Source: Vulcanimicrobiaceae bacterium | GTDB taxonomy: Bacteria > Vulcanimicrobiota > Vulcanimicrobiia > Vulcanimicrobiales > Vulcanimicrobiaceae | Assembly (NCBI GenBank): GCA_046262595.1 | Contig: JBHEMM010000036.1 | Location: forward strand, 5,885-24,840 | Length of the DNA: 18,956 bases | Direction: 5' to 3' | Shown: in pieces, positions 2-18,432 of the stretch | How the letters are laid out: the number at the start of each line of letters is the position of its first letter | Numbering within the stretch: the stretch's first letter is position 1 | The notes under the pieces: generated by a model | Seen by the model: only the letters and a program-made list of their open reading frames with translations | Database searches by the model: none | What the model was told of the DNA's origin: nothing | Translations under genes and position numbers: made by a program

Positions 2-397
2 TTTAACGCACTGCGCCGCAACGCAGATTTCACGAGTCTGCTCGATCGTTTTGTGCAGGCGTATGTCAATACGCTCGGGCAGCTCGCCGCCTGCAACCGC
101 CTGCATAATGTGTACGAGCGGTGCGCGCGCTGGTTGCTCATGACGCAGGATCGCGTCGGCCTAGCCGACATCCGGCTGACGCACGAGTACTTGGCGATGA
201 TGCTGGGCACGCAGCGTTCGGGCGTGACGATCGCGGCGGCAACCCTGCAGCGCGCGGGCTTTATCCGTTATGGGCGCGGCGTCATTACGATCGTCGATCG
301 CGCCGGCTTAGAAGATGCCGCCTGCGAATGCTACGACGTGGCGCGCGCGCAATTCGGCGGCCTGCTGCAGCGCCCGCGCTTCGACACGCACCGCTAG
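2..397 (+). CDS. Crp/Fnr-family transcriptional regulator, C-terminal part (5' end outside window)
   Basis: Frame is open from base 2 (FNALRRNADFTSLLDRFVQAY...). Contains ACNRLH..ERCARWLL, the HTH_Crp segment LTHEYLAMMLGTQRSGVT, and C-terminal ACECY, typical of this Crp subfamily. Confidence 0.92.
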   Translation, partial: FNALRRNADFTSLLDRFVQAYVNTLGQLAACNRLHNVYERCARWLLMTQDRVGLADIRLTHEYLAMMLGTQRSGVTIAAATLQRAGFIRYGRGVITIVDRAGLEDAACECYDVARAQFGGLLQRPRFDTHR

Positions 398-401
398 AAC
401 A

Positions 402-698
402 CTAGTTTTCGTCGACGGCCTTTGCGGCGCTTTTGCCGGCGGTTGCGAACATATCCGCAAACTGCAGCGCGTACTCTTTGCGCATTTCAAGAAACTTGTT
501 GGCGTAGTCGAAGCTCATTTCGACGAACTTCGTCGGCGACGTGAGGTTCTCAAGCGACACTTTGTCCATCGCGGCAACTTCAGAGAAAAACTTCTGGGTC
601 TGCTCGGCAGCGGCAACGTTCAGGTCTTGCGCCTGCTTGACGGCGGCCAGCGTCTGCTCTTGGAACTGTTCGGCGAATTTCGTAAAATCAGTGGTCAT
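402..698 (-). CDS. Phasin-like PHA granule-associated protein (98 aa)
   Basis: Small Ala/Gln/Glu/Lys/Phe-rich protein with an amphipathic helical pattern and no TM segment. Last gene of the pha cluster, preceded by a near-consensus promoter. The CDS is well supported; phasin function is inferred from context and composition. Confidence 0.7.
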   Translation of the reverse strand: MTTDFTKFAEQFQEQTLAAVKQAQDLNVAAAEQTQKFFSEVAAMDKVSLENLTSPTKFVEMSFDYANKFLEMRKEYALQFADMFATAGKSAAKAVDEN

Positions 699-718
699 GC
701 GCTAAGTATACCTAGCGC
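699..718. promoter_or_regulatory. 20-bp palindromic operator, copy 1 (GCGCTAAG-TATA-CCTAGCGC)
   Basis: 18/20 self-complementary, overlaps the -10 box and abuts the phasin ATG. Related copy at 3532-3551. Confidence 0.75.
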
Positions 719-734
719 GCGCTATATCTGTCAA
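705..734 (-). promoter_or_regulatory. Sigma70-type promoter of the phasin-like gene, probably leaderless
   Basis: Minus strand reads TTGACA (734-729), 18 nt, TATACT (710-705), 6 nt, ATG (698). No Shine-Dalgarno. The -35 overlaps the TGA of the upstream regulator. Confidence 0.85.
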
Positions 735-1087
735 CCCCGATCGGTGAACCCCCGGTAGATTCGTATCAGCGTTTCTTTCTGGTCCGTGCTCAGATGCGGG
801 TCTAGGCGGACCGCCTGCTCGACGTTCTGGCCTGGAGGGGCCTTGGCGTCCTCGTCCAGCAGTCCGGCCTGCGCATACATCGTTTCGGCGGAAATCTGCA
901 GAGCGTTCGCGATATTTTTGAGCACGTCGGCGGAGGGCTTGTAGAGCCCCTTTTCCACCTGGCCCAAGTAGGGATTGGACACGTGCGAGATCTCGGCCAG
1001 CTGGCGCAGCGAGAGATTGGCGAGCTCGCGTTGGCTGCGGATGAACTCGCCCAGGGTTTTCCAGCCGCGGCTGCTGCTCTCGCTCAT
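731..1087 (-). CDS. XRE-family HTH transcriptional regulator, Rv0474/MLDSR-like (118 aa)
   Basis: LGEFIRSQRELANLSLRQLAEISHVSNPYLGQVEKGLYKPSADVL...ISAETMYAQAGLL...DPHLSTDQKETLIRIYRGF matches my recollection of the actinobacterial Rv0474 family along its length. ATG 1087 overlaps the phaC stop (ATGA). Confidence 0.88.
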   Translation of the reverse strand: MSESSSRGWKTLGEFIRSQRELANLSLRQLAEISHVSNPYLGQVEKGLYKPSADVLKNIANALQISAETMYAQAGLLDEDAKAPPGQNVEQAVRLDPHLSTDQKETLIRIYRGFTDRG

Positions 1088-2769
1088 GCGCGCACGTACG
1101 AACCCGGTGCCGGTTCGCCCTCGGGCAGACGGCACGGCGTGCCGAGCTCGCCGCCGCGTTCTTGCGCCCACAATGCCCAGTCGTTCCACCAGCTATCGCC
1201 CTCGCGTACTGCCGATGCGAACCACTCGTCCGCGCTCTGCTCGCGCAGCGCGCGTTCTTGGGTCCAGTGCTGGGATTTGGGATTGCCCGGCGGATTGCAG
1301 ATGCCCGCGACGTGTCCCGCGTTGGTCAGGGTGTACTTCACGTCGGTCGCGCCGACCAAGTTGACCGTGCGGTACGTCGACCGCCACGGCGCGATATGAT
1401 CCGCTTGCGCGCCGAGCACGTAGAGCGGCGTTTGAATCGTGCCCAAATCAATGGGCGTGTCGCTGATGACGAATGTGCCCGGCTGCGCGATCTGATTGTG
1501 CAGATAACACGCGCGCAAGTACTGGGAGTGCATTGCGGCGGGCATGCGCGTGGAATCGCTGTTCCACGTGAGGATGTCGAATGCCGGCGGATCCTTCCCC
1601 ATAAACCAGTTGCTCACGACGTAACTCCAAATCAAATCGTTCGCGCGCATCCAATCGAAGGTGCCGGCCATCTCGCTCGAGTCCAAAAAACCGCGCTCGT
1701 TCATGCGTTTTTCCAGCCGCGCGATCGTCGTTTCGTCGGTGAAGACGCCCAAGTCGCCGGGCTGCGAGAAATCGATGAGGGAGTTCGTGAGCGTCGCGCT
1801 GTTCACGCGCTCGCCTTGACCATGGGCCTGCAGATACGCGAGCATGATGAGCGTGAGCGTTCCGCCCAAACACAGCGCGGCGATGTTCGTTTTCTCGCTG
1901 CCGGTGATGTGTTCGACCTGTGTGAGCGCTTCGAGCAGGCCCAAGCGCAGATAATCGTCCATGAGGAAGCCGCGCATGCTCTCATCCGGATTGCGGTAGC
2001 TGATCATGAAGGTTTGGTGCCCGTGACGCACGGCCCACTCGACGAACGAACGGCCGGGCGCGAGATCCATGATGTAGTACTTATTGATCCAGGGCGGACT
2101 GCACAGCAGCGGAATCGCGTGCGTTTTGGCCGTCTGCGGTTCGTACGCGAGCAGTTCGATGAGCTCGTTCTTGAACACAACACGTCCCGGGGTGGCGGCG
2201 AGATTCACTCCCAACTTATGCTGACTCGTATCCACCTGGCGCGGCATGCCCCGGTTTTCTTTTGCGTCCTGCATGAAGTTCTGCATGCCGCGCATTAAGC
2301 TGGCACCGCCGGTACTCATCGCTTCTTTGACTACTGCAGGGTTCATCCACGGCACGTTGCTCGGCGCAAACGCGTCGTTGAGCATCTGCATGGCGAAGCG
2401 CGCTTTTCGTTTGGTGGCATCGGGCAAGCGCGAGGTTTCCACCAGCGACATGGCCGCGCGCGTGCGCGCCAAATACTCTTCGAGCACACCGGCCAGCATC
2501 GGGTTCTCGCGCCAGCCCGCATCCGCGAAACGCTTATCTTTAGCGGTATCGGCGCCGTTGCCGGCCGCCTCGACGCCCGAAAGGCGCTGCAGAAAGCGCA
2601 GCCCCGCCGCCTGCTGCTCGAGCATCAGCTGCGAGTACCACATCGCCATGCGTGCGGGATCGGCCATTGCATCACTCATGACGGCTTTGAGCGCATCGCC
2701 GAGCGAGGCGGGGTCGAGTCCCGTGACGTCCAAGCCGTATTGCAGATCTTCCGGTGACATCGTGCTCAT
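1084..2769 (-). CDS. phaC: Poly(3-hydroxyalkanoate) synthase, single-subunit class I/II-like (561 aa)
   Basis: Motifs DKRF, APSN, ATPGRVV, PPWINKYYIMDL, lipase-like box ALCLGG (Cys), DHIAPW (Asp), GHVAG (His), APGSYV. ATG 2769 overlaps the phaB stop (TAATG). Confidence 0.95.
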   Translation of the reverse strand: MSTMSPEDLQYGLDVTGLDPASLGDALKAVMSDAMADPARMAMWYSQLMLEQQAAGLRFLQRLSGVEAAGNGADTAKDKRFADAGWRENPMLAGVLEEYLARTRAAMSLVETSRLPDATKRKARFAMQMLNDAFAPSNVPWMNPAVVKEAMSTGGASLMRGMQNFMQDAKENRGMPRQVDTSQHKLGVNLAATPGRVVFKNELIELLAYEPQTAKTHAIPLLCSPPWINKYYIMDLAPGRSFVEWAVRHGHQTFMISYRNPDESMRGFLMDDYLRLGLLEALTQVEHITGSEKTNIAALCLGGTLTLIMLAYLQAHGQGERVNSATLTNSLIDFSQPGDLGVFTDETTIARLEKRMNERGFLDSSEMAGTFDWMRANDLIWSYVVSNWFMGKDPPAFDILTWNSDSTRMPAAMHSQYLRACYLHNQIAQPGTFVISDTPIDLGTIQTPLYVLGAQADHIAPWRSTYRTVNLVGATDVKYTLTNAGHVAGICNPPGNPKSQHWTQERALREQSADEWFASAVREGDSWWNDWALWAQERGGELGTPCRLPEGEPAPGSYVRA

Positions 2770-3530
2770 TACATGTACATCCCGCCGTTGACGTTGTAGA
2801 CCGAACCCGTGATATAGCCGCTGTTCTCGTCGATAAGGAAACGCACCATGCGCGCGATCTCTTGCGGCGTTCCCAAACGCTGAACCGGCGTGCGCGCGGT
2901 TGCGGCCGCGATCGCCTGCTGCGGCATTGCCGCAACCATCTCCGTATTGATGAAGCCGGGGGCAACGGCATTGACGGTGATGCCTTTCGCCGCCATTTCG
3001 AGCGCGACGGTCTTCGTCAAACCGATGAGGCCCGCTTTCGCCGCCGAGTAATTCGACTGCCCCACGTTGCCGGAAAGTCCCACGACCGAGCTGATGTTCA
3101 CGATGCGCCCGTACCCTTGCGCGATCATCGGCTCGATGACCGCCTTGGTCATGAAGAACGGCCCCGAGAGATCGACCTGAAGCACCGCGTTCCATTCCTC
3201 AATGGTCATCTTCCGCAGCGTGTGATCCATCGTAATGCCGGCGTTGTTCACGAGAAAATCGATGCGCCCATGCTCCTTGACGATCGCCTCCACCGCTGCC
3301 GCACAGCGGTCGTACTCGCCCACGTTCCCTTCATAGAAAAGCACGTTCTGCGCGCTGCCGTTCAACGACGCGCGCAAGGTTTCGGTGCGTTCGCGATCGG
3401 CGGGCAGGCCGAGCACGGCCACCTTCGCGCCATCGCCCGCCAGGACGCTGGTAATCGCCGCGCCGATTCCGCGTGCCCCGCCCGTCACGATTCCGGCGCG
3501 GCCTGCAAGAGAAGTGGTAACAGTTGTCAT
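2769..3530 (-). CDS. phaB: Acetoacetyl-CoA reductase (SDR), phaC-proximal copy (253 aa)
   Basis: TGGARGIG, NNAGI, NISS, YSAAK, PGFINTEM, C-terminal NGGMYM typical of PhaB; translationally coupled to phaC. ATG 3530 preferred over GTG 3551 on promoter geometry. Confidence 0.88.
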   Translation of the reverse strand: MTTVTTSLAGRAGIVTGGARGIGAAITSVLAGDGAKVAVLGLPADRERTETLRASLNGSAQNVLFYEGNVGEYDRCAAAVEAIVKEHGRIDFLVNNAGITMDHTLRKMTIEEWNAVLQVDLSGPFFMTKAVIEPMIAQGYGRIVNISSVVGLSGNVGQSNYSAAKAGLIGLTKTVALEMAAKGITVNAVAPGFINTEMVAAMPQQAIAAATARTPVQRLGTPQEIARMVRFLIDENSGYITGSVYNVNGGMYM

Positions 3531-3531
3531 G

Positions 3532-3551
3532 GTGCTAGGCTTACCTAGCAC
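3532..3551. promoter_or_regulatory. 20-bp palindromic operator, copy 2 (GTGCTAGG-CTTA-CCTAGCAC)
   Basis: Perfect 8-bp inverted repeat with a 4-nt spacer, 1 nt from the phaB ATG. Arms are closely similar and the spacer length is identical to 699-718. Confidence 0.75.
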
Positions 3552-3567
3552 GGGCTGCGCTTCCTTT
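3539..3567 (-). promoter_or_regulatory. Putative alternative-sigma promoter AAAGG-N18-GTAAGC, 8 nt before ATG 3530
   Basis: Same geometry as the elements at 7979-8007 and 17361-17389. Confidence 0.5.
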
Positions 3568-3571
3568 GCGG

Positions 3572-4312
3572 CTACATATCCAGTCCGCCGTTAACCGTGT
3601 AAACGGCGCCGGTGATATAAGCAGACTCGTCCTCGAGCAAAAACTTCACGACGCGGGCGACTTCATGCGGGTTGCCCAAGCGCTTTTGCGGAATGCGCGA
3701 GACCACTTTTTCCAGCGCCGCTTCGGGGATGGCTTGCACCATCTCGGTCGCGATGAAGCCCGGCGCAACGCAGTTGACCGTGATGCCCTTTGTCGCCGTC
3801 TCGAGCGCAAGCGATTTTGAAAAGCCGAACAAACCGGCCTTCGAGGCCGCGTAGTTCGCCTGGCCCACGTTGCCCGTCTCGCCGATCACCGAACTGATGT
3901 TGACGATGCGGCCGCTTCCGCGCGCGATCATGTGCTCGAGCACCGCTTTGGTCATCGCGAACGCGCCGAACAGGTTGACGTTGAGCACCTTGTGCCAATC
4001 GTCGGGCGACATTTTGCGCACCGTTTTGTCGAGCGTGATGCCGGCATTGTTCACCAAGTAATCCACGCGGCCGTGCGCTTCAAGCACTTCGTTCACCACG
4101 CGCACGCAATCGGCCGCATCGTCGACGCGCCCTTGATGCACGCTTACCGTACCGCCCGCGCGGTGCAGCTCGCCTTGCAGCTTTTCTGCACCCTCTCTGT
4201 TGCGGCTGTATCCGGCGGCCACCGTAACGCCGTCACGCGCCAGCGAGGCGGTGATCGCGCCGCCGATACCGCGCGTTCCGCCCGTGACGAGTGCGACTCT
4301 CTGCTCAATCAT
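3572..4312 (-). CDS. phaB: Acetoacetyl-CoA reductase (SDR), distal copy (246 aa)
   Basis: MIEQRVALVTGGTRGIG, NNAGI, YAASK, PGFIATEM, C-terminal NGGLDM. AAGGCGG precedes ATG 4312. Confidence 0.88.
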   Translation of the reverse strand: MIEQRVALVTGGTRGIGGAITASLARDGVTVAAGYSRNREGAEKLQGELHRAGGTVSVHQGRVDDAADCVRVVNEVLEAHGRVDYLVNNAGITLDKTVRKMSPDDWHKVLNVNLFGAFAMTKAVLEHMIARGSGRIVNISSVIGETGNVGQANYAASKAGLFGFSKSLALETATKGITVNCVAPGFIATEMVQAIPEAALEKVVSRIPQKRLGNPHEVARVVKFLLEDESAYITGAVYTVNGGLDM

Positions 4313-4481: not shown

Positions 4482-4706
4482 ATGCGCCAGATCGGGACGG
4501 CCAACATCACGCGCGGCTCGATGGCCTGGGTTAATCCGTTCCGCTTCAAACTCGCACATGTGACGCACCGTCCGCACATCCGCGTGGAAAGCGCGCGCGT
4601 GCAAGCCGCGCCGTGCGTCATCGATCGCGGCGTCGATTTTATTGCCGACGTTCGCGACCTGCAGACACCGCCTGAAGTGCTGGCGGGCGGCGAGCGCGCG
4701 CCCTAA
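4482..4706 (+). CDS. Hypothetical protein (74 aa), divergent from the pha cluster
   Basis: Strong SD (AAAAGGAGAGTC) directly before ATG 4482. No recognisable domain. Confidence 0.6.
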   Translation: MRQIGTANITRGSMAWVNPFRFKLAHVTHRPHIRVESARVQAAPCVIDRGVDFIADVRDLQTPPEVLAGGERAP

Positions 4707-5333: not shown

Positions 5334-5576
5334 ATGCGAGCCCTTATCATGTTTCTCCTCATTACGGCACTTGCGTACGGCGCTTTGACCGCATACGCCG
5401 GGTTCCGGGTCGCGCGGGGTATCGGTGATGCCAAAGCGCGCAGCGCCATAACCCGCGTTGCAGCCCGGATGATGGGCCGCGACGCACTTGAGAAAGTGGC
5501 GATCCGGCGCGGCCGCGTGCCGGGCTGGATCACGCAATCGCCCGCCTTTTGGTGGTCGCTGCGCTCTTACGAATAA
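5334..5576 (+). CDS. Small protein with N-terminal hydrophobic anchor or signal (80 aa)
   Basis: MRALIMFLLITALAYGALTAYAGFR is one hydrophobic helix followed by a basic tail. Alternative ATG at 5307. Confidence 0.55.
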   Translation: MRALIMFLLITALAYGALTAYAGFRVARGIGDAKARSAITRVAARMMGRDALEKVAIRRGRVPGWITQSPAFWWSLRSYE

Positions 5577-7627
5577 CCACCCGCAACCAGCGCTACGTCG
5601 ATTACGGTAAGCACAAAAGTTCGCCCGTCGTTGTAACCGAGCGGCTCGCGATTGTTGCGGAACCGCCCGACGCGCCGGGCGTTCCCGCACCCAACGCGCA
5701 AGCCGGAACCTGGGCACGCTTTTTGCATAGCGGCTTGGCGCCGCTCGAACGCGCCGGCTGGACGGTCGAAATCGATCCCAGCGTACGCGACGTCGTGCTG
5801 GATCTGAGCGCGGACGCATCGCCGTGGGAAGCGCGCTTCGAATCGCAAGGCGCCGACTGGTTCGATCTCGATCTCGGTGTGGAAACGGGCGGCGAGCGCG
5901 TTCCACTGCTGCCGCTCGTCGTGGATATTCTGCGAAACATGCGCAACGGCGAGCTGCCTTCGGGCGAGGTCACCTATGCGATGCTGGGCGATCGTGCATT
6001 CGTGCTGCCAATGGAACGCATCCGCGGTATGCTGCGCACACTCGTCGAACTGCTCGAAGATGCCAAACTGAACGCGCTCGGCCGCATCGCGCTCAATAAA
6101 CTGGCCGCGCTCGAGATCGCGCAGAGCGTCGATCAGATCGAGGCGCAAGGTGAAAGCGCGCTCGCGCTGCGCGATCTCGCGCAGCGCCTCTCAACGTTTC
6201 AAGGCGTTGCCGACGTGCCCGTGCCGCCGTTATTGCGTGCGACACTGCGCGGCTACCAAACCGAAGGCTTCCGCTGGCTGCAGTTTCTGCGCGAATACGA
6301 GTGCGGCGGTATCCTGGCCGACGACATGGGGCTGGGAAAAAGCGTCCAAGCCATCGCGCACCTGCTGCACGAACGCGATCGCGCGCAGCGGCGGCCCTCG
6401 CTGCTCGTTGTTCCTACCAGCCTCGTGCCGAACTGGCTCGCGGAGATCGAACGTTTTGCGCCGGCGCTGCGCGTGGTCACCATGCACGGGCCGCAGCGTG
6501 CGCGCCTGACCGCAAGCATTGCATCGGCGGATTTGGTGATCACGACCTATGCACTGCTCTCGCGCGATCGCATTTTTCTGGACCGCGAATGGCACATTGC
6601 TATCCTCGATGAAGCGCAAGCCATTAAAAACGCGCAGTCCAAAGTTGCGCGCACCGCCCGCAAACTGCGCGCGCGCCAACGCTTGTGCCTGACCGGCACG
6701 CCGATGGAAAACCACTTGGGCGAGCTGTGGTCGCTCTTCGACTTCGTCATGCCGGGCGCGCTGTACGATCAGCGCCGGTTTGCGCAGCTGTTCCGCACGC
6801 CGATCGAACAGGGGCAATCCGCCGAACGCCGCGAGGTGCTCGCGCGCCGCATTCGCCCGTTCGTTCTGCGCCGCACCAAGGCCGGCGTTGCCATGGAGCT
6901 GCCCGCCAAAACGGAGATCGTCGAACGCGTCGAACTGGCCGACGATCAGCGCGATCTGTACGACTCGGTGCGTTTAGCGGTGAACGAAGAAGTGCGCGCC
7001 GAGATCGCGCGCTTAGGAATAGCGCGCAGCCGCATCGCGGTACTCGATGCGCTGCTCAAACTGCGCCAAGTCTGTTGCGATCCGCGCTTGGTAAAGCTGG
7101 CGAGCGCGCGGCGAGCGAAGTCGAGCGCGAAGCTGGAATGGCTGATCGATACGCTCACGCAACTTGCTGCGGAAAACCGGCGCACGCTGGTCTTCTCGCA
7201 ATTCACCAGCATGATCGACCTCATCAAACCCGAGCTCGATCGGTCGGGTCTGGCGTACGTGGAACTCGTCGGCTCGACGGTGGATCGGGCGACGCCGGTG
7301 CGCCGTTTTCAAGCGGGCGAAGTGCCGGTGTTCCTGATCAGTCTGCGCGCAGGCGGCACCGGCCTGAATCTGACCGCGGCGGACACCGTGATTCATTACG
7401 ATCCGTGGTGGAATCCGGCCGTGGAGCGCCAAGCCACCGATCGCGCGCACCGCATCGGTCAAGAAAAGCCGGTGTTCGTTTATAAACTCGTCGCGGCCGG
7501 GACGGTAGAAGAGAAGATCCTCGAGCTGCAAGCACGCAAGGCGCATATCGCCGGTGCGCTGTTCGATGCGGCCGATACGGCGAGCATCGACTTGCAGCCC
7601 GAGGACCTTGAAGCGCTGCTTACGTGA
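5549..7627 (+). CDS. SNF2/SWI2-family helicase-like ATPase (start uncertain)
   Basis: Motif I LADDMGLGKS, Ia VVPTSL, II DEAQ, III LTGTP, IV FSQF, V SLRAGGTGLNL, VI QATDRAHRIGQ. Confidence 0.95.
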   Translation: MVVAALLRITTRNQRYVDYGKHKSSPVVVTERLAIVAEPPDAPGVPAPNAQAGTWARFLHSGLAPLERAGWTVEIDPSVRDVVLDLSADASPWEARFESQGADWFDLDLGVETGGERVPLLPLVVDILRNMRNGELPSGEVTYAMLGDRAFVLPMERIRGMLRTLVELLEDAKLNALGRIALNKLAALEIAQSVDQIEAQGESALALRDLAQRLSTFQGVADVPVPPLLRATLRGYQTEGFRWLQFLREYECGGILADDMGLGKSVQAIAHLLHERDRAQRRPSLLVVPTSLVPNWLAEIERFAPALRVVTMHGPQRARLTASIASADLVITTYALLSRDRIFLDREWHIAILDEAQAIKNAQSKVARTARKLRARQRLCLTGTPMENHLGELWSLFDFVMPGALYDQRRFAQLFRTPIEQGQSAERREVLARRIRPFVLRRTKAGVAMELPAKTEIVERVELADDQRDLYDSVRLAVNEEVRAEIARLGIARSRIAVLDALLKLRQVCCDPRLVKLASARRAKSSAKLEWLIDTLTQLAAENRRTLVFSQFTSMIDLIKPELDRSGLAYVELVGSTVDRATPVRRFQAGEVPVFLISLRAGGTGLNLTAADTVIHYDPWWNPAVERQATDRAHRIGQEKPVFVYKLVAAGTVEEKILELQARKAHIAGALFDAADTASIDLQPEDLEALLT

Positions 7628-7883
7628 CGGCGCGTCGTCCCGTTACTGCGCGGATGATGAAGAGCAGAATGACTGCTCCGATAATCGCGCAGATGATGCT
7701 CCCGATGTTGAAGCCGGTAACTCCGGTATGGCCCAAAAGGCCGTAGACCCAGCCCCCGATGAGGGCGCCGATGATTCCGACAATGATGTCGCCGAGGATT
7801 CCGCCCGGGCCCTCACCCGGCACGATGTATTTTGCGATCAATCCTGCGATAAGTCCCAGGACGATCCAAGCGATAATTCCCAT
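7620..7883 (-). CDS. GlsB/YeaQ/YmgE-family (transglycosylase-associated) stress membrane protein
   Basis: IIAWIVLGLIAGLIAK..PG...GGILGDIIVGIIGALIGG with three Gly-rich hydrophobic helices. SD AAGGAG before ATG. 8-bp convergent overlap with the SNF2 gene. Confidence 0.95.
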   Translation of the reverse strand: MGIIAWIVLGLIAGLIAKYIVPGEGPGGILGDIIVGIIGALIGGWVYGLLGHTGVTGFNIGSIICAIIGAVILLFIIRAVTGRRAVT

Positions 7884-7923: not shown

Positions 7924-7951
7924 GCTTGCCTATACCCATCCTGTAACCCTT
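7924..7951 (-). promoter_or_regulatory. Putative alternative-sigma promoter AAGG-N18-GCAAGC of the GlsB-family gene
   Basis: Same two-box spacing as the other copies; here followed by a leader carrying an SD. Confidence 0.4.
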
Positions 7952-7978
7952 GTGCCACGTTTTCCGCCGCGTTAACCC

Positions 7979-8007
7979 AAAGGTCGCTTGCGGATGGGGC
8001 GCCAAAC
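7979..8007 (+). promoter_or_regulatory. Putative alternative-sigma promoter AAAGG-N18-CCAAAC, 8 nt before ATG 8016
   Basis: No SD before ATG 8016; geometry identical to 3539-3567 and 17361-17389. Confidence 0.5.
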
Positions 8008-8015
8008 CGCACGCC

Positions 8016-11000
8016 ATGACGGCTCGTTTTGCAGCGTTTTGTTGTGCCATTGCGATGGCTTTACCGATGGTTTCGCGAGGCGCCGAAATGCCTGCGCAGT
8101 GGCGCAGCGTGGGCCCGTTTATCGGCGGACGCGTCGTGGCGGTCGCCGGCGTTCCCGGGCGCAATCTCTTCTATATGGGCGGAGTGGACGCGGGCGTTTG
8201 GGAAAGCGCCGACTACGGCATCCGCTGGACCAACATCTCCGACGGGAAGATCGCTCCGGGCGCAAACAGCATCGGCGCGCTGGCCGTCGCGCCTTCCGAT
8301 GCGAACGTCATTTACGCCGGAACCGGCGAGGGCGACCCGCGCGGCACGATGATCACGGGTGAGGGCGTCTATAAATCGCTCGATGCCGGCAAGACGTGGC
8401 AATACGCGGGTCTGCGCGACACGCACAGCGTGGGATCGATCGCCATCGATCCGCGCGACGCCAACGTCGTCTATGTTTCCTCGCTCGGTCACGTCTTTGC
8501 CGACAACGCCGATCGCGGCGTCTTTAAAACCACGGACGGCGGAAAGACCTGGAGCAAAGTGCTTTATGTCGACGCGGCGACCGGTGCCAACAATGTCGTT
8601 ATCGATCCGCAGCAGCCAAACGTGCTGTACGCGACGATGTGGCAGATGTACCGGCGTCCGTGGAAGCTTTCCAGCGGCGGCCCGGGCAGCGGGCTGTATA
8701 AATCGGTCGACGCGGGCGCGCACTGGACGAAAATTTCGCTCCATCCGGGGTTCGCGCGCGGTTTGCTCGGAAAAATGGGCGTTGCGGTCTCGGCCAGCGA
8801 TTCCCATGTCGTCTACGCCGTCGTGCAAGCCAAGGACGGCGGGGTGTTTCGTTCGGCCGACGCGGGCGCGACATGGACGCGCGTGAACGAGGAACAGAAG
8901 CTGCGCCAGCGCGCGTTCTATTACATGTCGCTTGTGGTGGATCCGAAAAACCCGGACACGGTATATGCGCCGCAAGTGGACGGCTTGCTGGTTTCGCGCG
9001 ACGCCGGAAAACTGTGGACGCGTCTGCGTCCGCCGCACGGCGACAATCACATCGTGTGGGTCGACCCGCAGAACACGCAAGTGCTGCTGGAAGGCAACGA
9101 CGGCGGCGCAACGGTTTCGACCGACGGCGGAAAAACGTGGAGTCCGCAGCACAATCAGCCCACGGGACAGTTCTATCACGTCGCGCTCGACCGGCGCTTT
9201 CCGTTCCACATCTACGGCGCGCAGCAAGATGAAGGCTCCATCGAAGGCCCGAGCGCATCGTCGCAAGGCGGCATCACCGGCGATCTGTGGCACAATGTGG
9301 CGTACGGCGAGAGCACATTCGTCGCACCCCAGCCGGGCAACGCCGACGTAACGTACGGCAGCGGCTACTTCAGCATCTTCCTGCGTTACGACGAGCGCAC
9401 CGGCGAATACAGCAGCGTGAGCCCGCTGCCCTATTATCAGGAAGGCGCATCATCGGCGGAGCTGCGCTACCGCTTTGCGTGGACGCATCCGATTCTGTTC
9501 TCGCCGGTCAATCGCAAAGAGCTGCTCGCGGGGGCGCAGTACGTGCTGAGCAGCACCGATTACGGCAAAACGTGGCGGCGTTTGAGCGGCGACCTGACGC
9601 GCAACGACCCCAAGACCGAAGGCCCGACCGGCGGTCCGATCGAGAAAGACCAAACCAGCGCCGAAGTCTATCCGTACGTCTCCGCGCTCGCCGTGTCACC
9701 GTTGAACGGCCGTCTGCTGTGGGCCGGTTCGTCGGACGGGCTGGTGCACGTGAGCACCGATCACGGCGCGCATTGGCGCGCGATCACGCCGCCGGGGCTG
9801 CCGCAATACGCGGAGATCAGTTCCATCGAACCCTCGCATACCGCCCAAGGCACCGCCTATCTTACCGCGCAGCGCTACATGTGGGACGACTTCCGCCCGT
9901 ACGTGTATCGCACGCGCGACTTCGGCGCGCATTGGGAATCCATCGGCAGCGGCTTGCCCGCGGATCAGTACGCGTTCAAAATCGCGCAAGATCCGCGTTC
10001 GCCTCATCTGCTTTTGCTGGGCACGCGCGAAACGGTGTACGCGACGTACGACGACGGCGCGCGCTGGCAGCCGCTCACGCTGAATCTTCCGGGCGTCCAA
10101 GTGCGCGACATCGCCTTCGATACGCGCCAAGGCCAAGTGGCCATCGCAACGCACGGCCGAGCGTTTTGGGTGCTGGACGACCTGAGGTACTTCGAACAGC
10201 TCGCCGCGGCGAGCTCGAGCAGCGGCGCGCATCTGTTCGCGCCCGAAACGGCTTGGCTCACGCACTCATACGGCGGCAGCAGCTATCCGCGTCCGGACAC
10301 CGGCACAAATCCGCCGTTCGGCGCGACGATTTTTTTCCGTATTCCGCGAAGTTACAACGGCACTCAGCCCGCGACGCTGACGATCGCCGATGCGAACAAC
10401 CGCGTGGTCAACCGCTTTCAACTGCACGCCAAAGGCGCAGCGGTAAGCGCAGCACAGCGCGAACAGATGACGCCCAACCAACTGCGCGCGCTTGGGCAAG
10501 AACAAGCCACGACGATTGCCGCCGGAACGAACAAGTTTCAGTGGGATCTGCGCTACCCTTATGCCACCGACGTCACCGGGTTTTTCGTGCCGGCAGCCGC
10601 AGGCGGTGAAGAAGACACGATTCAAGGGCCGCAAGTGCTGCCCGGGCGCTACACCGCGGTGCTCACGTACGCCGGAACGACGGCGCGCGCGCCGTTCACC
10701 GTTGCGCTCGATCCGAATCTGCATCCCGGCGCCGGCGCGCTAGGCGCGCAGTTCGGTCTGCTTATGCGTATTCACGAGACGCTCAATGTGATGGACGAGC
10801 TGCTCAACAAAGCCATCGCGGCGCGCGATCGCCTGCGCGGCGGCGCGCAGCGCAGTGCACTCGACCGCGCGATCGATGCGCTCGTGAACCTGCAGAGCCA
10901 GTCCAGCGAAGGTCCGCTGCTCACCGGCACGCGGGTGCGGGACCATCTGGCGTATCTGATCTCCGACATCGAATTCACCTACAACAAACCGACCGCCGCC

Positions 11001-11075
11001 CAATACGCGGTTTACAGCCAACTCCGCGCCGCCGCCGCTCGCGGCGAATCACATTTGCGATCGTTGCTCAAGTAA
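8016..11075 (+). CDS. Secreted BNR/Asp-box (VPS10/sortilin-like) beta-propeller protein, putative glycosyl hydrolase, copy 1 (1019 aa)
   Basis: Signal peptide-like MTARFAAFCCAIAMALPMVSRGA, then WRSVGPFIGGRV, about 11 S/T-x-D-x-G-x-x-W Asp boxes, ATHGRAFWVLDD, and a C-terminal WDLRY...PGRYT module with helical tail. Confidence 0.9.
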   Translation: MTARFAAFCCAIAMALPMVSRGAEMPAQWRSVGPFIGGRVVAVAGVPGRNLFYMGGVDAGVWESADYGIRWTNISDGKIAPGANSIGALAVAPSDANVIYAGTGEGDPRGTMITGEGVYKSLDAGKTWQYAGLRDTHSVGSIAIDPRDANVVYVSSLGHVFADNADRGVFKTTDGGKTWSKVLYVDAATGANNVVIDPQQPNVLYATMWQMYRRPWKLSSGGPGSGLYKSVDAGAHWTKISLHPGFARGLLGKMGVAVSASDSHVVYAVVQAKDGGVFRSADAGATWTRVNEEQKLRQRAFYYMSLVVDPKNPDTVYAPQVDGLLVSRDAGKLWTRLRPPHGDNHIVWVDPQNTQVLLEGNDGGATVSTDGGKTWSPQHNQPTGQFYHVALDRRFPFHIYGAQQDEGSIEGPSASSQGGITGDLWHNVAYGESTFVAPQPGNADVTYGSGYFSIFLRYDERTGEYSSVSPLPYYQEGASSAELRYRFAWTHPILFSPVNRKELLAGAQYVLSSTDYGKTWRRLSGDLTRNDPKTEGPTGGPIEKDQTSAEVYPYVSALAVSPLNGRLLWAGSSDGLVHVSTDHGAHWRAITPPGLPQYAEISSIEPSHTAQGTAYLTAQRYMWDDFRPYVYRTRDFGAHWESIGSGLPADQYAFKIAQDPRSPHLLLLGTRETVYATYDDGARWQPLTLNLPGVQVRDIAFDTRQGQVAIATHGRAFWVLDDLRYFEQLAAASSSSGAHLFAPETAWLTHSYGGSSYPRPDTGTNPPFGATIFFRIPRSYNGTQPATLTIADANNRVVNRFQLHAKGAAVSAAQREQMTPNQLRALGQEQATTIAAGTNKFQWDLRYPYATDVTGFFVPAAAGGEEDTIQGPQVLPGRYTAVLTYAGTTARAPFTVALDPNLHPGAGALGAQFGLLMRIHETLNVMDELLNKAIAARDRLRGGAQRSALDRAIDALVNLQSQSSEGPLLTGTRVRDHLAYLISDIEFTYNKPTAAQYAVYSQLRAAAARGESHLRSLLK

Positions 11076-11097
11076 CGTCCGGACAAAAGGAAACAAC

Positions 11098-14000
11098 GTG
11101 AACCGAATTGCCGCCCTGACCCTGTGCGCCGTGTTCCTGGTGCTGCCGCTGGGCACGCACGCCGCCGCGACGCAAACCCCCGCGCAACCGCCCACCGCGC
11201 AGCAGCTGATGAGCAAACTGCAGTGGCGCAACATCGGCCCGTTCATCGGCGGGCGCGTCGTGGCGCTCGCCGGCGTTCCAAGCAACCCGGATTTGTTTTA
11301 CATGGGCGGCGTCCAAGGCGGCATTTGGCGCAGCACCAACTATGGCCAGAACTGGGAAAACATCAGCGACGGCGGGCTCGGTATGAACGGTTACAGCATC
11401 GGCGCTCTTGCGGTCGCGCCCTCGAATCCTAAAGTGATCTACGCCGGCACCGGTGAAGCCGACGTGCGCGGCGATTTTTCGACGGGCGACGGCGTGTATA
11501 AAACCACCGACGCCGGTAAAACGTGGCACTACGCCGGCTTGCGCGACACGCATGAAACCACGACGATCGCAATCGATCCGCGCAATGCCGACGTCGCGTA
11601 CGTCAGCTCGCTCGGCCACGTGTTCGCGCCCAATCCCGAACGCGGCATCTTCAAAACCACGGACGGCGGCAAGACGTGGAGCAAAGTGCTGTACGTGGAC
11701 GAGAAAACCGGCGGCGTTGCCGTCATCGTCGATCCGCATTCGCCGCAGAATGTGTATGCGTCGATGTGGCAAGTGCAGCGGCGCCCGTGGAACCTCACCA
11801 GCGGCGGCCCGGGAAGCGCACTGTACAAGTCGAGCGACGGCGGCGCGCACTGGTCGAAGATCTCCGATAATCCGGGCTTCGCGCGCGGCGTGCTGGGCAA
11901 GATGGGCATCACGCTCTCGGCCGCAAACCCGCGCGTCATTCTGGCCATCGTGCAAGCCAAAGAAGGCGGCGTCTTCCGCTCGGCCGACGGCGGCGCGACA
12001 TGGAAGCGCGTAAACAGCGAAATGAAGCTGCGCCAGCGCGCCTTCTACTACATGGGCATCTACGCGGACCCGACCAATGCGAACGTCGCCTACGCGCCGC
12101 AAGTGGACGGCGTGTTCAAAACCACGAACGGCGGGCGCACGTGGAAAGCCGTCACGCCGCCGGGCGATCATCACATCATCTGGATCAATCCGCGCAATCC
12201 GAAGATACTGCTCGAAGGCGACGACGGCGGCGCCACCGTTTCGGTGGACGGCGGCAAGACGTGGAGCACCGAACTCAATCAGCCGACGAGCCAATATTAC
12301 CGCATCGCGATCGATCACCAATTTCCGTTCCACGTGTACGGCGCCGCGCAGGATCAGGGCGCATGGGAAGGCCCGAGCGCATCCAACGAAGGCTTGACCT
12401 TGGGCGCCTGGCACAACGTCGCGCTGGGTGAGAGCACGTGGGTTGCGCCGGAGCCGGGCAACGCGAACGTGACGTTCGGCAGCGGCTATCAAAGCTCGAT
12501 GGCGCGCCTGGACACCTCGACCGGCGAAGAGAAGAACGTCAGCCCGTGGCCGGAGTATCAATCGGGGAACTCCTCGGCGGAAGCGCGGTACCGTTTCGGC
12601 TGGACCCATCCGATCTTTTTCTCGCCCTCCAAACCGCACGAACTGCTGGTCGGCGGCAACGTCGTGTTCAAGAGTGACGACTACGGCACGCATTGGGAGA
12701 AGATCAGCCCGGATCTCACCCGCAACGATCCCACGACCGAAGGCCCGAGCGGCGGTCCGATCGATCTTGATCAGACGGGCGTCGAAACGTTCCCCGATCT
12801 CTCCGCGCTCGCCGTCTCGCCGCTGAGCGCAAACCTGATGTGGGCGGGCTCCGCCGACGGCTTGGTGCACGTGACGACGGACGCAGGTGCGAATTGGAAG
12901 CTGGTCACGCCGCCCGAGCTGCCGCAATGGGCGCAGATCAGCAACATCGAGCCGTCGCATTTCGATAAAGGCACGGCGTATCTGACGGCGTCGCGCTATC
13001 AATGGGATGACTTTCACCCGTACGTTTACAAGACAACGGATTTCGGCGCGCATTGGAGCGCCATGTCGTCGGGCATTCCCGAGGATCAGTACGTGTTTGC
13101 GGTGCGCCAGGATCCGCGCGACGCGCGGGTGCTGCTTGCCGGAACGCGCAGCACCATCTATGTGAGTCTTGACGGCGGCGGCAAATGGCAGCCGCTCACC
13201 CTGAACCTTCCATACGTGCAAGTGCGCGACATCGCTATCGATGCGCGTCAGGGCGACATCGCGGTTGCAACCCACGGCCGCTCCTTCTGGGTGCTCGATA
13301 ATCTCAAACTGATCGAACAACTCGCGGATAACGACGCGCAAAACGCAGGCGCCGGCTCCCCTGCGCTCTTCGCACCGGAAACGGCGTGGCTCTCACACGC
13401 CTACGGCGCGAGCCCGTATCCGATTCCCAATCTGGGGCAGAATCCGCAGTACGGCACAGCGGTGTTCTTCAATGTGCCGCAAAGCTATACCAATGCGACG
13501 GCCGCGACGCTTTCGTTTGTGGATGGCAACGGGCGCACCGTGCGCAGTTTTAAACTGCATCTGCGCAACAAGAAAGAGAAAAAGCCCACGCCGGCGCACC
13601 TTGAAGCAATGGACCAGGTGCAGCTTATGGCGCGCGCGCTGCACGAGACCACCGCAATCGATCGCGGTATGAACGTGTTCCAATGGGATATGCGTTACCC
13701 GCCGGCGGCGGAAGCGAACGGCGCGCATGCGTTCGGCACCGACGACTTCGGCGACACCACCAACGGGCCGACGATCGTTCCCGGCAAGTACACGGTCGTG
13801 CTGAGTTACGACGGCAAAACGCTGCGGCGGCCGTTCCGCGTGGCGCTCGATCCGCGCCTGCATCCCGGCGCGGGCGCCCTGCAGGCGCGCCTCTCGCTCG
13901 CGATGCGCATTCACAATACGCTCGACCGCCTCAACCGGACGGTGAATGCTGCGCTCGCCGCACGTTCGCGCGTTGCACCGGAGAAACGCGCGCAGCTTCA

Positions 14001-14211
14001 AGCCGCAATCGATGAGGCGGTGCAACTCGACGTGCACTCCAGCGAAGGCGACTTGCTGCACGAGAGCAAGCTGCGCGATCACCTTGCGTTCCTGATGAAC
14101 TCGCTCGATATGGCCTATCAGGCACCCACGCCGGCGGAGGAAGCGACGTTCAACGATCTCAACGCGGAGGCGACGGCGACGATAGCGCGGCTGAATGCGC
14201 TGATGCGGTAA
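11098..14211 (+). CDS. Secreted BNR/Asp-box (VPS10/sortilin-like) beta-propeller protein, putative glycosyl hydrolase, copy 2 (1037 aa)
   Basis: SD AAAAGGA before GTG 11098; signal peptide ending THA-A; colinear full-length paralog of copy 1. Confidence 0.92.
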   Translation: MNRIAALTLCAVFLVLPLGTHAAATQTPAQPPTAQQLMSKLQWRNIGPFIGGRVVALAGVPSNPDLFYMGGVQGGIWRSTNYGQNWENISDGGLGMNGYSIGALAVAPSNPKVIYAGTGEADVRGDFSTGDGVYKTTDAGKTWHYAGLRDTHETTTIAIDPRNADVAYVSSLGHVFAPNPERGIFKTTDGGKTWSKVLYVDEKTGGVAVIVDPHSPQNVYASMWQVQRRPWNLTSGGPGSALYKSSDGGAHWSKISDNPGFARGVLGKMGITLSAANPRVILAIVQAKEGGVFRSADGGATWKRVNSEMKLRQRAFYYMGIYADPTNANVAYAPQVDGVFKTTNGGRTWKAVTPPGDHHIIWINPRNPKILLEGDDGGATVSVDGGKTWSTELNQPTSQYYRIAIDHQFPFHVYGAAQDQGAWEGPSASNEGLTLGAWHNVALGESTWVAPEPGNANVTFGSGYQSSMARLDTSTGEEKNVSPWPEYQSGNSSAEARYRFGWTHPIFFSPSKPHELLVGGNVVFKSDDYGTHWEKISPDLTRNDPTTEGPSGGPIDLDQTGVETFPDLSALAVSPLSANLMWAGSADGLVHVTTDAGANWKLVTPPELPQWAQISNIEPSHFDKGTAYLTASRYQWDDFHPYVYKTTDFGAHWSAMSSGIPEDQYVFAVRQDPRDARVLLAGTRSTIYVSLDGGGKWQPLTLNLPYVQVRDIAIDARQGDIAVATHGRSFWVLDNLKLIEQLADNDAQNAGAGSPALFAPETAWLSHAYGASPYPIPNLGQNPQYGTAVFFNVPQSYTNATAATLSFVDGNGRTVRSFKLHLRNKKEKKPTPAHLEAMDQVQLMARALHETTAIDRGMNVFQWDMRYPPAAEANGAHAFGTDDFGDTTNGPTIVPGKYTVVLSYDGKTLRRPFRVALDPRLHPGAGALQARLSLAMRIHNTLDRLNRTVNAALAARSRVAPEKRAQLQAAIDEAVQLDVHSSEGDLLHESKLRDHLAFLMNSLDMAYQAPTPAEEATFNDLNAEATATIARLNALMR

Positions 14212-14215
14212 GCAG

Positions 14216-15757
14216 CTAACCTACGGTGTGTGCGGGAATGGTTCCTCGACGTGTCCGGTCTTGGCGCGGAACCCCTTCAAGGACGGCGCGCGCATGACTG
14301 CCGCCGTTGGGGCGCTGCGCCACGGCAAACTCCTTTGTCAGACTTGAGACGATGAACAAGCCGCGTCCGCGTTCGCTCAGCACGTTGTCGGGAAGTCTTG
14401 GGGTATGGCGGAAGCCCGGTCCGCCGTCCAGCACGTGAAGCACGGGACGCTCGGCCTTCCATTCGAGCGTAATGTCGGCCCACCGCGGCGCGTACCGTAC
14501 GACATTGCCGACCAGTTCGCCGAACACCACTTCCGCCGCCGCGCGTTCCGCGCGCGCTACGCCGCCCTTTTCCAACTCGCCTAAAAATTCCGCGCGCACG
14601 GCCGCCGCCATGTCGGCATCGCTGACGTCGAACGACCAATGCAGCAAGCGCTCCGAGCGTTCGACATGCCAGACCGTCATCACGGCGACGTCGTCGCGCG
14701 CGCCGTCTTTGAGCACCGCATCGTGAATCGCCAGCGCCACGTTCGGCGCCTCGAGCACGTCTTGGTTCATCACTGCTTTGCGTAGCCGCTCTTCGCCCGC
14801 AAGCATATCTCGCGTTGCCTCGGTCAAGCCGTCGGTATACAGCACGAGCAGCGAGCCGACCGGCATGCTGATGCTTTGCACGCTGCGCGGAATGTGAAAC
14901 GGAACGCCGAGCGGCGCTCCTTCGGCGAGAAGTTCCTGCAGCGTTCCGTCCGCTAAACGCAGGACGGGCCGCGGGTGCCCGGCCGTCGCATACGTAAGCA
15001 CACTGCTCGCCGGATCGAACAGGCCCACGAACGCGGTCACCAGGGCTTGCGGATCTTCGGCTTGCAGCGCGCGATCGGCGGCATCGAGCATCGTCGAAGG
15101 ATCGTCGTGGACTTGCGCGACGCCGCGCACCAGTTGGCGCACGTTCGCCATTGCAACGGCCGCGTCCAATCCGGAACCGCACACATCGCCGATGGAGAGC
15201 ATCACACGCCCGTCGGCAAGCTGCAGCGCGTCGTACCAATCGCCTCCGATCTGGCTTTCGTCCATGCCCGGGCGGTAAAACGAACTGAACGTCAAGCCGG
15301 GAATCTGGGGCAGGGAACGCGGCAGCGCGGCTTTCTGAAAACGCTGCGCGACGCGGCGCTCGTGCTTGTACGCGCTCGAAACGCTGCGCAGCTTCAGCGA
15401 GAGCCGGCGCGCTTTGATCAAGCTCTCGACGCGGGCGCGCATCTCGACCTTTGAGAGCGGGCGCAGCACGACGTCGTCAACGACGGCCCAGAGCTCGTTG
15501 GTCATGTACGTGATGCTGCGCCGGTCGCTGAGCAGCAGAACCGGCAGCATCACCGGTTCGATGATGCTGCGTTCGAGCGAAAGGCGCTGTGCATTCGCCT
15601 TCAAACACGAGCCGTCCAGAATCACCAGATCGGGTTCGGGCGGGGCCTCGCTTTCTTCATCGGGGAACGCGAACAGCACCTCGTACTGCGGCACGAGGAG
15701 TTGCGCGAGCAAGGTGCGGTTCTCGCGGTTCGAAAGCAGGATGAGGACGCGCTCCAC
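14216..15757 (-). CDS. Atypical receiver + SpoIIE/PP2C phosphatase + RsbW-like HATPase fusion protein (513 aa)
   Basis: REC-like N-terminus (RVLILL, DLVILDG, PVLLLS, DDVVLRP). PP2C motifs GGDWYD, GDVCG, LYTDG, RDD. HATPase boxes ELVGN, DGGPG, GRGLFIV. GTG 15757 lies 1 nt after the upstream stop. Confidence 0.9.
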   Translation of the reverse strand: MERVLILLSNRENRTLLAQLLVPQYEVLFAFPDEESEAPPEPDLVILDGSCLKANAQRLSLERSIIEPVMLPVLLLSDRRSITYMTNELWAVVDDVVLRPLSKVEMRARVESLIKARRLSLKLRSVSSAYKHERRVAQRFQKAALPRSLPQIPGLTFSSFYRPGMDESQIGGDWYDALQLADGRVMLSIGDVCGSGLDAAVAMANVRQLVRGVAQVHDDPSTMLDAADRALQAEDPQALVTAFVGLFDPASSVLTYATAGHPRPVLRLADGTLQELLAEGAPLGVPFHIPRSVQSISMPVGSLLVLYTDGLTEATRDMLAGEERLRKAVMNQDVLEAPNVALAIHDAVLKDGARDDVAVMTVWHVERSERLLHWSFDVSDADMAAAVRAEFLGELEKGGVARAERAAAEVVFGELVGNVVRYAPRWADITLEWKAERPVLHVLDGGPGFRHTPRLPDNVLSERGRGLFIVSSLTKEFAVAQRPNGGSHARAVLEGVPRQDRTRRGTIPAHTVG

Positions 15758-15758
15758 G

Positions 15759-17225: not shown

Positions 17226-17360
17226 CGTTTGTTCTCTCCGCGTCATAAGGAAGCGAGGTACTGGTTCCCTTTTTGAGGCGGGAATAAAACACCGATCGCC
17301 AGCGGAGCACGCACAGAATACCAGCGCGTGCGCATGGACGCGGGGGTTGCGACAAAGGCA

Positions 17361-17389
17361 AAAGGACGGGTGCGGCATTGGGGCCAAGC
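17361..17389 (+). promoter_or_regulatory. Putative alternative-sigma promoter AAAGG-N18-CCAAGC, 8 nt before ATG 17398
   Basis: No SD before ATG 17398; same geometry as the other copies. Confidence 0.5.
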
Positions 17390-17397
17390 GCGCAGAA

Positions 17398-18432
17398 ATG
17401 CTTAACCGCTCGAAATTTCTGGCCGCCACAACGGCAGCCGCGGCTGCAACCGCAAGTGCGGCTGCAGCCGAAACACCGTTAATGGCAGCCGCCGCAACGC
17501 CGGCAACGCCGCCAACGATAAAGCCGCCGCGGCTGCGTGCGGGCGACGCTGTCGGGCTGATTTCGCCTGCCGGACCGATGAACTCGGCGGACGACCTCAA
17601 GCACGGCATCGCGCAGATCGAACTGCTCGGGCTGCGCGCGGTCGTGGGCAAACATGCGATGGATAAAGCGGCCTACCTTGCCGGCAGCGATGCGGCGCGC
17701 GCGGAAGACGTCAACACGTTCGCGCGCGATGCGCAGATCCGCGGCGTCTTCGCGCTGCGCGGCGGTTACGGGACCATGCGCATTCTGGACGCAATCGACT
17801 ACGCGGCATTCCAAGCCGATCCGAAAATCGTTTTAGGGTTTTCCGATCTCACCGCGCTGCTCAATGCAATAACGCTGCGCACCGGACTCGTTACGTTCCA
17901 CGGACCGGTCGCCGCCTATTCCACGTACACGCCGGCCGTCGTGCGCGAGATGCAAGCCGCGCTCATGTCGGGCGCACCGATCGGCACGCTGCACAACACC
18001 TCGACGGTGACCGTCACACCGGGCAGCGTACGCGGCAAACTGGTGGGCGGAAATCTGACGCTGGTCAATGCGGTGGACGGCACGCCGTATGCGGTGCCGT
18101 TCGAGAACAACATCCTGCTCATCGAAGACGTGCACGAAGAGCCGTATCAGGTCGATCAGCTGCTCACCACACTCTTATTGCGCGGCAAACTGCAAAGCAC
18201 GGCCGGCATTGCCGCCGGTGTTTTCATGGAACCCGATCGCAAACAAGCCGAAGAACCCTCGCCCGAGCTGGCGGCGACGCTGCGCGACCGGCTGGCGCGC
18301 GCCGGCCGCCCCGCCGCCTACGGCATGCAGTTCGGGCACATTCTGAACCAGTGGATCCTTCCGATCGGTATGGACGCGGCGTTCGATGCAAGCGCCGGAA
18401 CGCTAACGATTGCGCAGGCCGCGACCCAGTAG
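17398..18432 (+). CDS. LD-carboxypeptidase, peptidase S66 family, with Tat-like signal (344 aa)
   Basis: KPPRLRAGD, YLAGSDAARA, RGGYG, GFSD (Ser), FHGP, GGNL, IEDVHE (Glu), FGH (His), LPIG. Confidence 0.93.
   Translation: MLNRSKFLAATTAAAAATASAAAAETPLMAAAATPATPPTIKPPRLRAGDAVGLISPAGPMNSADDLKHGIAQIELLGLRAVVGKHAMDKAAYLAGSDAARAEDVNTFARDAQIRGVFALRGGYGTMRILDAIDYAAFQADPKIVLGFSDLTALLNAITLRTGLVTFHGPVAAYSTYTPAVVREMQAALMSGAPIGTLHNTSTVTVTPGSVRGKLVGGNLTLVNAVDGTPYAVPFENNILLIEDVHEEPYQVDQLLTTLLLRGKLQSTAGIAAGVFMEPDRKQAEEPSPELAATLRDRLARAGRPAAYGMQFGHILNQWILPIGMDAAFDASAGTLTIAQAATQ

Follow-up and report, generated by a model that had tools for sequence, protein, structure and literature searches.

The window analysed here, a stretch of 18,956 nucleotides on one contig of a Vulcanimicrobiaceae bacterium, carries on its minus strand a PHA gene cluster with two operator-like palindromes. 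Boxes were scored throughout as GCTWRG-N4-CYWAGC, out of 12 bases. In minus-strand order, the features are the following.

3572–4312, minus strand: phaB2, the upstream, second phaB-like reductase gene, without a box before it here (best upstream score 9/12)
3541–3566, minus strand: putative SigB/F-type promoter with a -35-like AAGGAA (3566–3561) and a -10-like AGGTAA (3546–3541), 10 nt before the ATG, read from the logo of 46 loci
3532–3551, no strand: site 2, a perfect operator-like box (core 3534–3549) before phaB1-phaC-xre
2769–3530, minus strand: phaB1, phaB-like acetoacetyl-CoA reductase gene, the first after site 2 (TIGR01829 is the best match, 281 bits, below the 302 cut-off)
1084–2769, minus strand: phaC, PHA synthase gene, 561 aa (PhaC_N, E = 3.7e-57; class I model 550 bits, below the 623 cut-off)
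731–1087, minus strand: xre, XRE/HTH_3 regulator gene of MLDSR type, 118 aa, with Tyr49 in a GLYKPS loop after the recognition helix
721–736, minus strand: weaker second box over the -35 (8/12 here), in tandem with site 1 at a 19–20 bp period and overlapping the XRE stop codon
705–734, minus strand: sigma-70-type promoter, TTGACA (734–729), 18 nt, TATACT (710–705), 11/12
699–718, no strand: site 1, the main operator-like box (16-bp core 701–716), covering the -10 and the predicted start of the phasin-like gene
402–698, minus strand: gene of a phasin-like helical protein of 98 aa, a granule coat candidate (Phasin_2, E = 0.016, below cut-off)

Stop and start codons overlap along phaB1-phaC-xre (the phaC ATG lies on the phaB stop and the XRE ATG on the phaC stop), so the three genes likely form one operon. 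The phasin-like protein reaches 15.9 bits against Phasin (PF09361), for which the gathering cut-off is 24.9; weak Phasin_2 matches occur in 13 of 19 of its homologues (best E = 5.5e-4), and its predicted structure consists of two long helices at a pLDDT of 69, a modest confidence. The closest named relatives of the XRE belong to Eremiobacterota/Vulcanimicrobiota, and its matches among solved structures are limited to generic XRE proteins, DdrO and ClgR. Elsewhere in the window, a fragment of a Crp-type regulator (HTH_Crp_2; 2–397, plus strand) converges on the phasin gene, and an SNF2-type helicase (5549–7627, plus strand) as well as two tandem 1040-aa repeat-propeller glycosyl-hydrolase-like genes (7950–14211, plus strand) were recognised by eye.

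The two palindromes in the window and the genome

Both palindromes noticed in the initial annotation are present. Site 1 pairs at seven of eight arm positions, with one A·C mismatch, and site 2 at all eight; their described distance of 0–1 nt from an ATG also holds, site 1 abutting the phasin-like ATG (698) and site 2 lying 1 nt from the phaB ATG (3530). The two sites share 13 of 16 arm bases. Nevertheless, the palindrome pair within the window alone is weak evidence, and conservation is the proof. Indeed, among 300 dinucleotide shuffles of the window, 163 contained a similar pair, defined as palindromes with 8-bp arms and a 4-nt spacer, at most one mismatch and at least 13 of 16 arm bases in common. 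When CTAG was required in both palindromes, a condition chosen post hoc, no shuffle did (0/300). The scarcity of CTAG had been put forward for the window: the tetranucleotide is the most under-represented one in the genome (O/E 0.61), but it occurs eight times in the window and ranks only 33 there. We dropped it as an argument, as it is absent from the commonest form of site 1, GCTTGG-TATA-CTTAGC (46 of 69 relatives).

At the scale of the 2.4-Mb genome, sites 1 and 2 are the only matches with zero or one mismatch. They also hold the top two scores (22.5 and 21.2 bits, the next being 15.3) with a PWM that was itself trained on the sites of relatives. Used alone, a degenerate 18-mer did not separate genomes with the XRE from those without it, and a reversed control pattern matched equally often.

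Conservation of site 1 and of the phasin-like promoter

The XRE was searched for in 60 relatives, 26 of which encode it at E < 1e-40; two unpublished genomes were omitted, leaving 24. In 20 of them, a block within 130 nt after the xre stop was visible by eye before any pattern was fitted. In the remaining four, the phasin-like gene sits elsewhere, kilobases off or on another contig, and the block travels with it. The box stands ahead of the phasin-like gene in 24/24 relatives at 11–12 of 12, a score that is partly circular since the pattern was adjusted after a look at the raw DNA of the relatives. Among 80 named loci, which partly overlap the 24 relatives and include kin that are not independent, site 1 scores at least 10/12 in 69; of the other 11, one touches the edge of its locus, one falls outside the searched stretch on the upstream side, one is degenerate, and eight have no phasin match in the stretch. 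The resulting consensus is TTGACA-N5-AGC-N3-TGCTTGG-TATA-CTTAGCR; the conservation of site 1 is owed in part to the -10 (TA.ACT). The match of a C/T change in one arm by G/A in the other, previously taken as preserving symmetry, turned out not to be needed, the flanking pair being T-A in 33, T-G in 29, C-G in six and C-A in one of the 69 relatives.

The -35/-10 spacer of this promoter measures 18 nt in 63/69 relatives and 17 nt in the other six. Because the ATG of the phasin-like gene comes only 6 nt past the -10, its mRNA is likely leaderless in this genome; a start codon directly after the box is found in 18/69 relatives, and a longer leader in the rest. The tandem arrangement with a weaker box is also recurrent: an AGC lies 11 nt past TTGAC in 50/69 relatives, versus 41 of 3344 TTGAC sites genome-wide, and a second box scoring at least 9/12 is present in 25/69, versus a background of 1.3%. 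This second box reaches 11/12 in five loci (L097, L113, L117, L125 and L126).

Site 2 and the predicted promoter of phaB-phaC-xre

Site 2 is less uniform. It is full (at least 11/12) in 16 of the 24 relatives, degenerate in five (one of them doubtful), absent in one (L054, 7/12) and not assessable in two. In the 46 named loci with phaB1, its right arm hardly varies, and the AGC end of this arm is found in 46/46, the AGC having been part of the anchor. The full palindrome is kept in 18 of these loci, and the left arm is degenerate (8–10 of 12) in the other 28, so that phaB-phaC may there be under weak control or have escaped it.

The initial annotation had also placed a -10 element under both sites. 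This stands for site 1, which covers a sigma-70 -10, but not for site 2, where the same register reads TAAGCC and the promoter scan that detected the site-1 promoter found none. The promoter type at site 2 depends on the lineage: TTGAC with TAGACT or TACACT occurs in L048, L049, L052 and L140, and in most other loci a GGTAA[AG] stands 9–10 nt ahead of the start codon, with A[AG]G[GT] about 16 nt before it. Across these changes of promoter, the box itself is retained. For the -35 of SigB/SigF promoters, the elements to compare are GGWWT/GTTT. The genome encodes a SigB/F/G sigma factor that scores over the profile cut-off, and among 1019 5-mers at this distance from ATGs genome-wide, GGGTA shows the strongest enrichment (47 against 18.7). 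Both the GGTAA[AG] arrangement of most site-2 loci and the genomic GGGTA(A) about 9–10 nt before start codons resemble the general-stress promoters of SigB/SigF, for which a GGGTA -10 is described (PMC6448022). In contrast to that consensus (PMC6448022), the site-2 -10 is AGGTAA in this genome and GGGTAA in only part of the relatives; AGGTA is not enriched here (rank 481 of 1019). A PWM scan of the genome for the site-2 promoter returned 89 matches, mostly unconvincing, and no clear regulon. Site 2 likely overlaps a SigB/F-type promoter of phaB-phaC-xre; being upstream of these genes, it would therefore also control the regulator's own gene. Finally, the lineages with a perfect GGGTAA at site 2 have lost the left arm, which suggests a trade-off over shared bases between the left arm of the operator and the stress-sigma -10, settled differently by lineage.

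Genome-wide, 46 ORFs have GGGTA-N followed by 9–10 nt to the ATG (e.g., C9:12760-13368, C49:2460-2999 and C52:8372-8935), probably a SigB/F general-stress regulon with leaderless mRNAs. Twenty of them, picked by hand, include a superoxide dismutase, ferritin-like, hemerythrin and BON proteins and two SpoIIE proteins, and eight have no family. The sigma gene (C1:120510-121298) lies behind anti-anti-sigma-like and anti-sigma-like ORFs in one operon (C1:120510-122073; labels given by eye). In the window itself, a 74-aa ORF without a Pfam family (4482–4706, plus strand), divergent from phaB2, has GGGTAA 10 nt before its ATG. An 87-aa membrane protein (7620–7883, minus strand), which we take to resemble GlsB/YeaQ/YmgE, is preceded by GGGTAT at a non-leaderless distance. 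A KaiC-like ATPase gene followed by what looks by eye like a SpoIIE phosphatase/anti-sigma fusion (14216–17651, minus strand) possibly feeds the SigB/F switch.

Distribution of the system and extent of the regulon

Of 57 published genomes, 25 have both the XRE and the phasin-like gene, and the two are never found apart. In a phylum-wide sample, the XRE is present in 58 of 151 genomes (one unpublished), which belong to two families only. PhaR (PF07879) was detected in 0/61 genomes, with a positive Caulobacter control. Around 12 phaC loci of a distant clade, from genomes where the XRE of the present cluster is missing or unlinked, no box of at least 11/12 was found in 5.6–10 kb, although these promoters are not orthologous to those of the cluster.

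The regulon appears local. The wider set of targets initially predicted (phaA, phaZ and lipid genes) did not materialise, as the genome holds no third strong site. The best scores upstream of four thiolase genes and phaB2 are 8–9 of 12, a contig-edge thiolase on C97 being left unscored, and the intracellular depolymerase family (PF06850) has no match in this 90%-complete genome. Additional exact matches away from the cluster in relatives (L135-L138, L141 and L142) show no link to PHA genes. At L138:2043 (G029), a perfect site-2-like palindrome stands away from any PHA gene, and the phaB1 site of G029 scores only 10/12. In four relatives, a third box (11/12) lies 50–105 nt upstream of phaB2 (L037:5101, L038:4219, L040:4879 and L044:3113, in oriented coordinates), where the regulon may include this gene; the window genome has no such box. 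Some otherwise intact clusters contain genes split over two frames (phaC in L033, L035 and L040; phasin in L034), possibly through assembly errors.

Kinship to the MLDSR system

MLDSR (RHA1_ro02105) of Rhodococcus jostii RHA1 is described as binding a 16-bp palindrome, motif 1, proven by EMSA and SPR with a KD of 175 nM; a weaker, 5-nt-spaced motif 2 lies just upstream, the two forming a 43-bp tandem (PMC5504291). In the same account, MLDSR activates at low and represses at high concentration: MLDS fell upon knockout as well as upon overexpression, and transcription rose at low protein ratios, although a reviewer of the paper doubted the activation data (PMC5504291). Lipid droplets are reported to compete with DNA for MLDSR, which does not bind single strands (PMC5504291). 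In the comparison with this published site, suggested in the initial annotation, motif 1 shares 13/16 arm bases with site 2 and 10/16 with site 1. In Nocardia farcinica, xre is followed by a PAKKA-repeat gene and the same box lies upstream. The window XRE is 48% identical to the Nocardia protein over 103 aa (E = 1e-31); since the latter was assigned to the MLDSR type by synteny and operator, the kinship to MLDSR rests on the Nocardia protein and not on the R. jostii sequence.

As in the MLDSR system of the published account (PMC5504291), an XRE of the same subfamily, judged by the syntenic Nocardia protein, goes with a 16-bp box with a 4-nt spacer and GCTW-N8-WAGC arms. A strong box is likewise joined by a weaker upstream one within about 40 bp, the second being only 8/12 here, and the targets, here predicted, comprise a gene for the storage-body coat as well as the operon of the regulator itself. 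Unlike the MLDSR box given there, GNT(T/A)GCTNNTGCTANC with an inner C/G, both sites of the window have G/C as the inner pair, and the weak upstream box is a 16-mer instead of a 5-nt-spaced motif. The window XRE carries a Tyr instead of an Arg after the recognition helix. Besides, the locus is a PHA cluster in which xre neighbours phaB-phaC and a phasin-like gene whose 98-aa product has no PAKKA repeats, rather than one for TAG droplets with an MLDS/HbhA-type PAKKA-tailed protein; and instead of a single xre-mlds operon, it has two promoters, the coat gene standing downstream of xre and the synthesis genes together with xre (PMC5504291).

The inner base pair and the residue after the recognition helix

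Of 80 metagenome XRE homologues, 73 had sufficient upstream DNA to be evaluated, and 37 of these have an upstream box; relaxing the length limit and adding the two actinobacterial records gave 40 loci with a box. The inner pair is C/G in 38/38 Arg/Lys-type loci with a box and G/C in the 2/2 Tyr-type metagenome loci. Within the site-1 set, it is G/C in 54/54 Tyr-type loci, and 9/15 His-type loci depart from G/C. Tyr-type proteins with a G/C box are also found outside the phylum (L127, L297, L298, L189 and L216). An XRE tree was built from 76 rows, for which about one Eremiobacterota locus in three was retained in addition to every His row; it separates Arg/Lys from Tyr/His by one supported, deep split, with His as one nested clade. 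Because of this topology, the covariation amounts to about two independent events and may track the clade rather than the residue.

Several observations accompany these types. Outside Eremiobacterota, L189, L216, L298 and L127 have a Tyr-type xre with a TTGA[C/T]..TA[G/T]ACT box downstream. In the first three, a phasin-like gene follows the box and no phaC was recognised among the printed ORFs; in L127, the box promoter faces an opposite-strand gene. His-type loci (L046 of G026, L080, L082, L095, L102 and others) show the order phaB2-xre-phasin without an adjacent phaC, the only phaC of G026 belonging to the distant clade (41%), and many of them combine leaderless phasin genes with relaxed inner pairs. 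A scan of viral contigs for His-type homologues yielded none.

Discussion

The initial proposal that the sites are operators of the XRE encoded in the cluster is strongly supported at the sequence level by the conservation of the sites at both orthologous promoters, the match to the MLDSR operator and an inner pair that follows the XRE clade. We favour, with a probability of about 0.75, a reading in which the two palindromes are conserved, predicted XRE operators at both promoters that would repress when the XRE is free, the regulator likely being drawn off by PHA granules. XRE dimers would very probably bind GCTWRG-N4-CYWAGC. Sitting over the -10 and +1, the XRE would probably keep RNA polymerase from a sigma-70 promoter in front of the coat gene and, in the present lineage, from a probable SigB/F stress promoter of phaB-phaC-xre, resulting in negative autoregulation. 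The weaker -35 box would tune the response or permit activation at a low protein level. We give about even odds to the next step, in which growing granules would sequester the XRE as droplets do MLDSR, with phasin and synthase released until the surface is coated, a job done by PhaR in Ralstonia; the granule binding of the XRE would here be carried over from the TAG-droplet system. Likewise, we infer pure repression with some reserve, given that MLDSR is reported to act both ways, that the weak box overlaps the -35 and that site 2 would also control the XRE's own gene. According to a follow-up paper, MLDSR is reportedly controlled by long-chain fatty acids.

The XRE might bind the boxes and act mainly as an activator or a two-way switch, using the -35 box at a low level and repressing at a high one, and sense acyl-CoA or a fatty acid instead of the granule surface. 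This would agree with the effects of MLDSR dosage on MLDS and transcription (PMC5504291), with the weak tandem box over the -35 of the phasin-like promoter and with the poor promoter elements at site 2 in this genome. We find it improbable, since the strong box occupies a repressing position over the -10 and the start, and the near-consensus phasin promoter (11/12) needs no activator. That the conserved block is a promoter plus the site of another, unlinked regulator, with the XRE as a passenger, would account for the -10 elements formed by the central bases at both sites and for the half of the metagenome XRE homologues without an upstream box. However, boxes of this family lie beside xre in Rhodococcus, Nocardia, Dormibacterota and other contigs despite differing neighbours, the inner pair follows the XRE clade and the arms are kept when the promoter type changes, all of which makes a passenger role quite unlikely.

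At the RNA level, the palindromes might be hairpins in a read-through mRNA that gate the next ATG, the AAGGA about 10 nt before the site-2 stem being a looped-out Shine-Dalgarno. Both do fold as 8-bp stems on the sense strand, site 1 through a G-U pair, and 68/69 flanking pairs are compatible with RNA pairing. Yet in 63/69 site-1 copies the invariant T at position 13 faces another T, at position 4, in mid-stem, and 28/46 site-2 copies no longer pair but retain G-TAAA and its distance from the AGG element. Moreover, a separate leader puts site 1 well ahead of the start codon in most relatives, and MLDSR is reported not to bind single strands (PMC5504291); we therefore hold such hairpins to be highly improbable. 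A terminator at the palindromes was ruled out, there being no U-tract and no terminator prediction. As for a chance likeness of two GC-rich palindromes, for which the frequency of equally similar pairs in shuffled windows would speak, its probability is negligible: it is refuted by the match to a proven operator and by a conservation that is position-specific in two families and in other phyla.

The operator reading also has counterparts in other PHA producers. PhaR of Ralstonia eutropha represses phasin and itself and is taken up by granules, and the release logic predicted for the window XRE resembles it (PMC11332829). Unlike PhaR, the XRE belongs to an unrelated protein family, and the synthesis genes phaB-phaC would here share the control. 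Few PHA regulators are known, and PhaR is called the only known one in R. eutropha (PMC11332829). The XRE-family protein H16_B1672 of that species, reported at a phasin promoter, can be likened to the window XRE by description, not by sequence (PMC11332829). In Eremiobacterota, the cultured member Vulcanimicrobium alpinus is reported to make Nile-red-positive inclusions and to have PHA genes (PMC9758169). Our search for a published account of an operator or regulator like this, whether from Eremiobacterota or from a PHA cluster, found none in mostly open literature, listings and the beginnings of abstracts. The window system likely represents an operator of MLDSR type in a PHA cluster, differing from MLDSR in its inner pair and in its MLDS partner. 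Palindromic operators for a neighbouring XRE are in themselves an ordinary mechanism class.

To conclude, and tentatively, Eremiobacterota might run their PHA granules independently of PhaR, by a circuit drawn from the lipid-droplet regulator family of actinobacteria, in which the XRE would sense the granule surface and gate both the coat gene and a stress-sigma synthase promoter, one residue (Arg/Lys, Tyr or His) setting the inner pair. This makes a sharp prediction, namely an inner G/C with Tyr49 and C/G with Arg, and would, if true, provide a simple recognition code for more than 1000 uncharacterised family clusters. Besides, the sites could serve as a granule-responsive part in PHA engineering. 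If this picture is true, the control of lipid droplets and of PHA granules would be linked through one regulator family, as a single surface-titration module of ancient origin that serves TAG droplets and PHA granules alike, and a widespread soil phylum would gain a defined storage switch.
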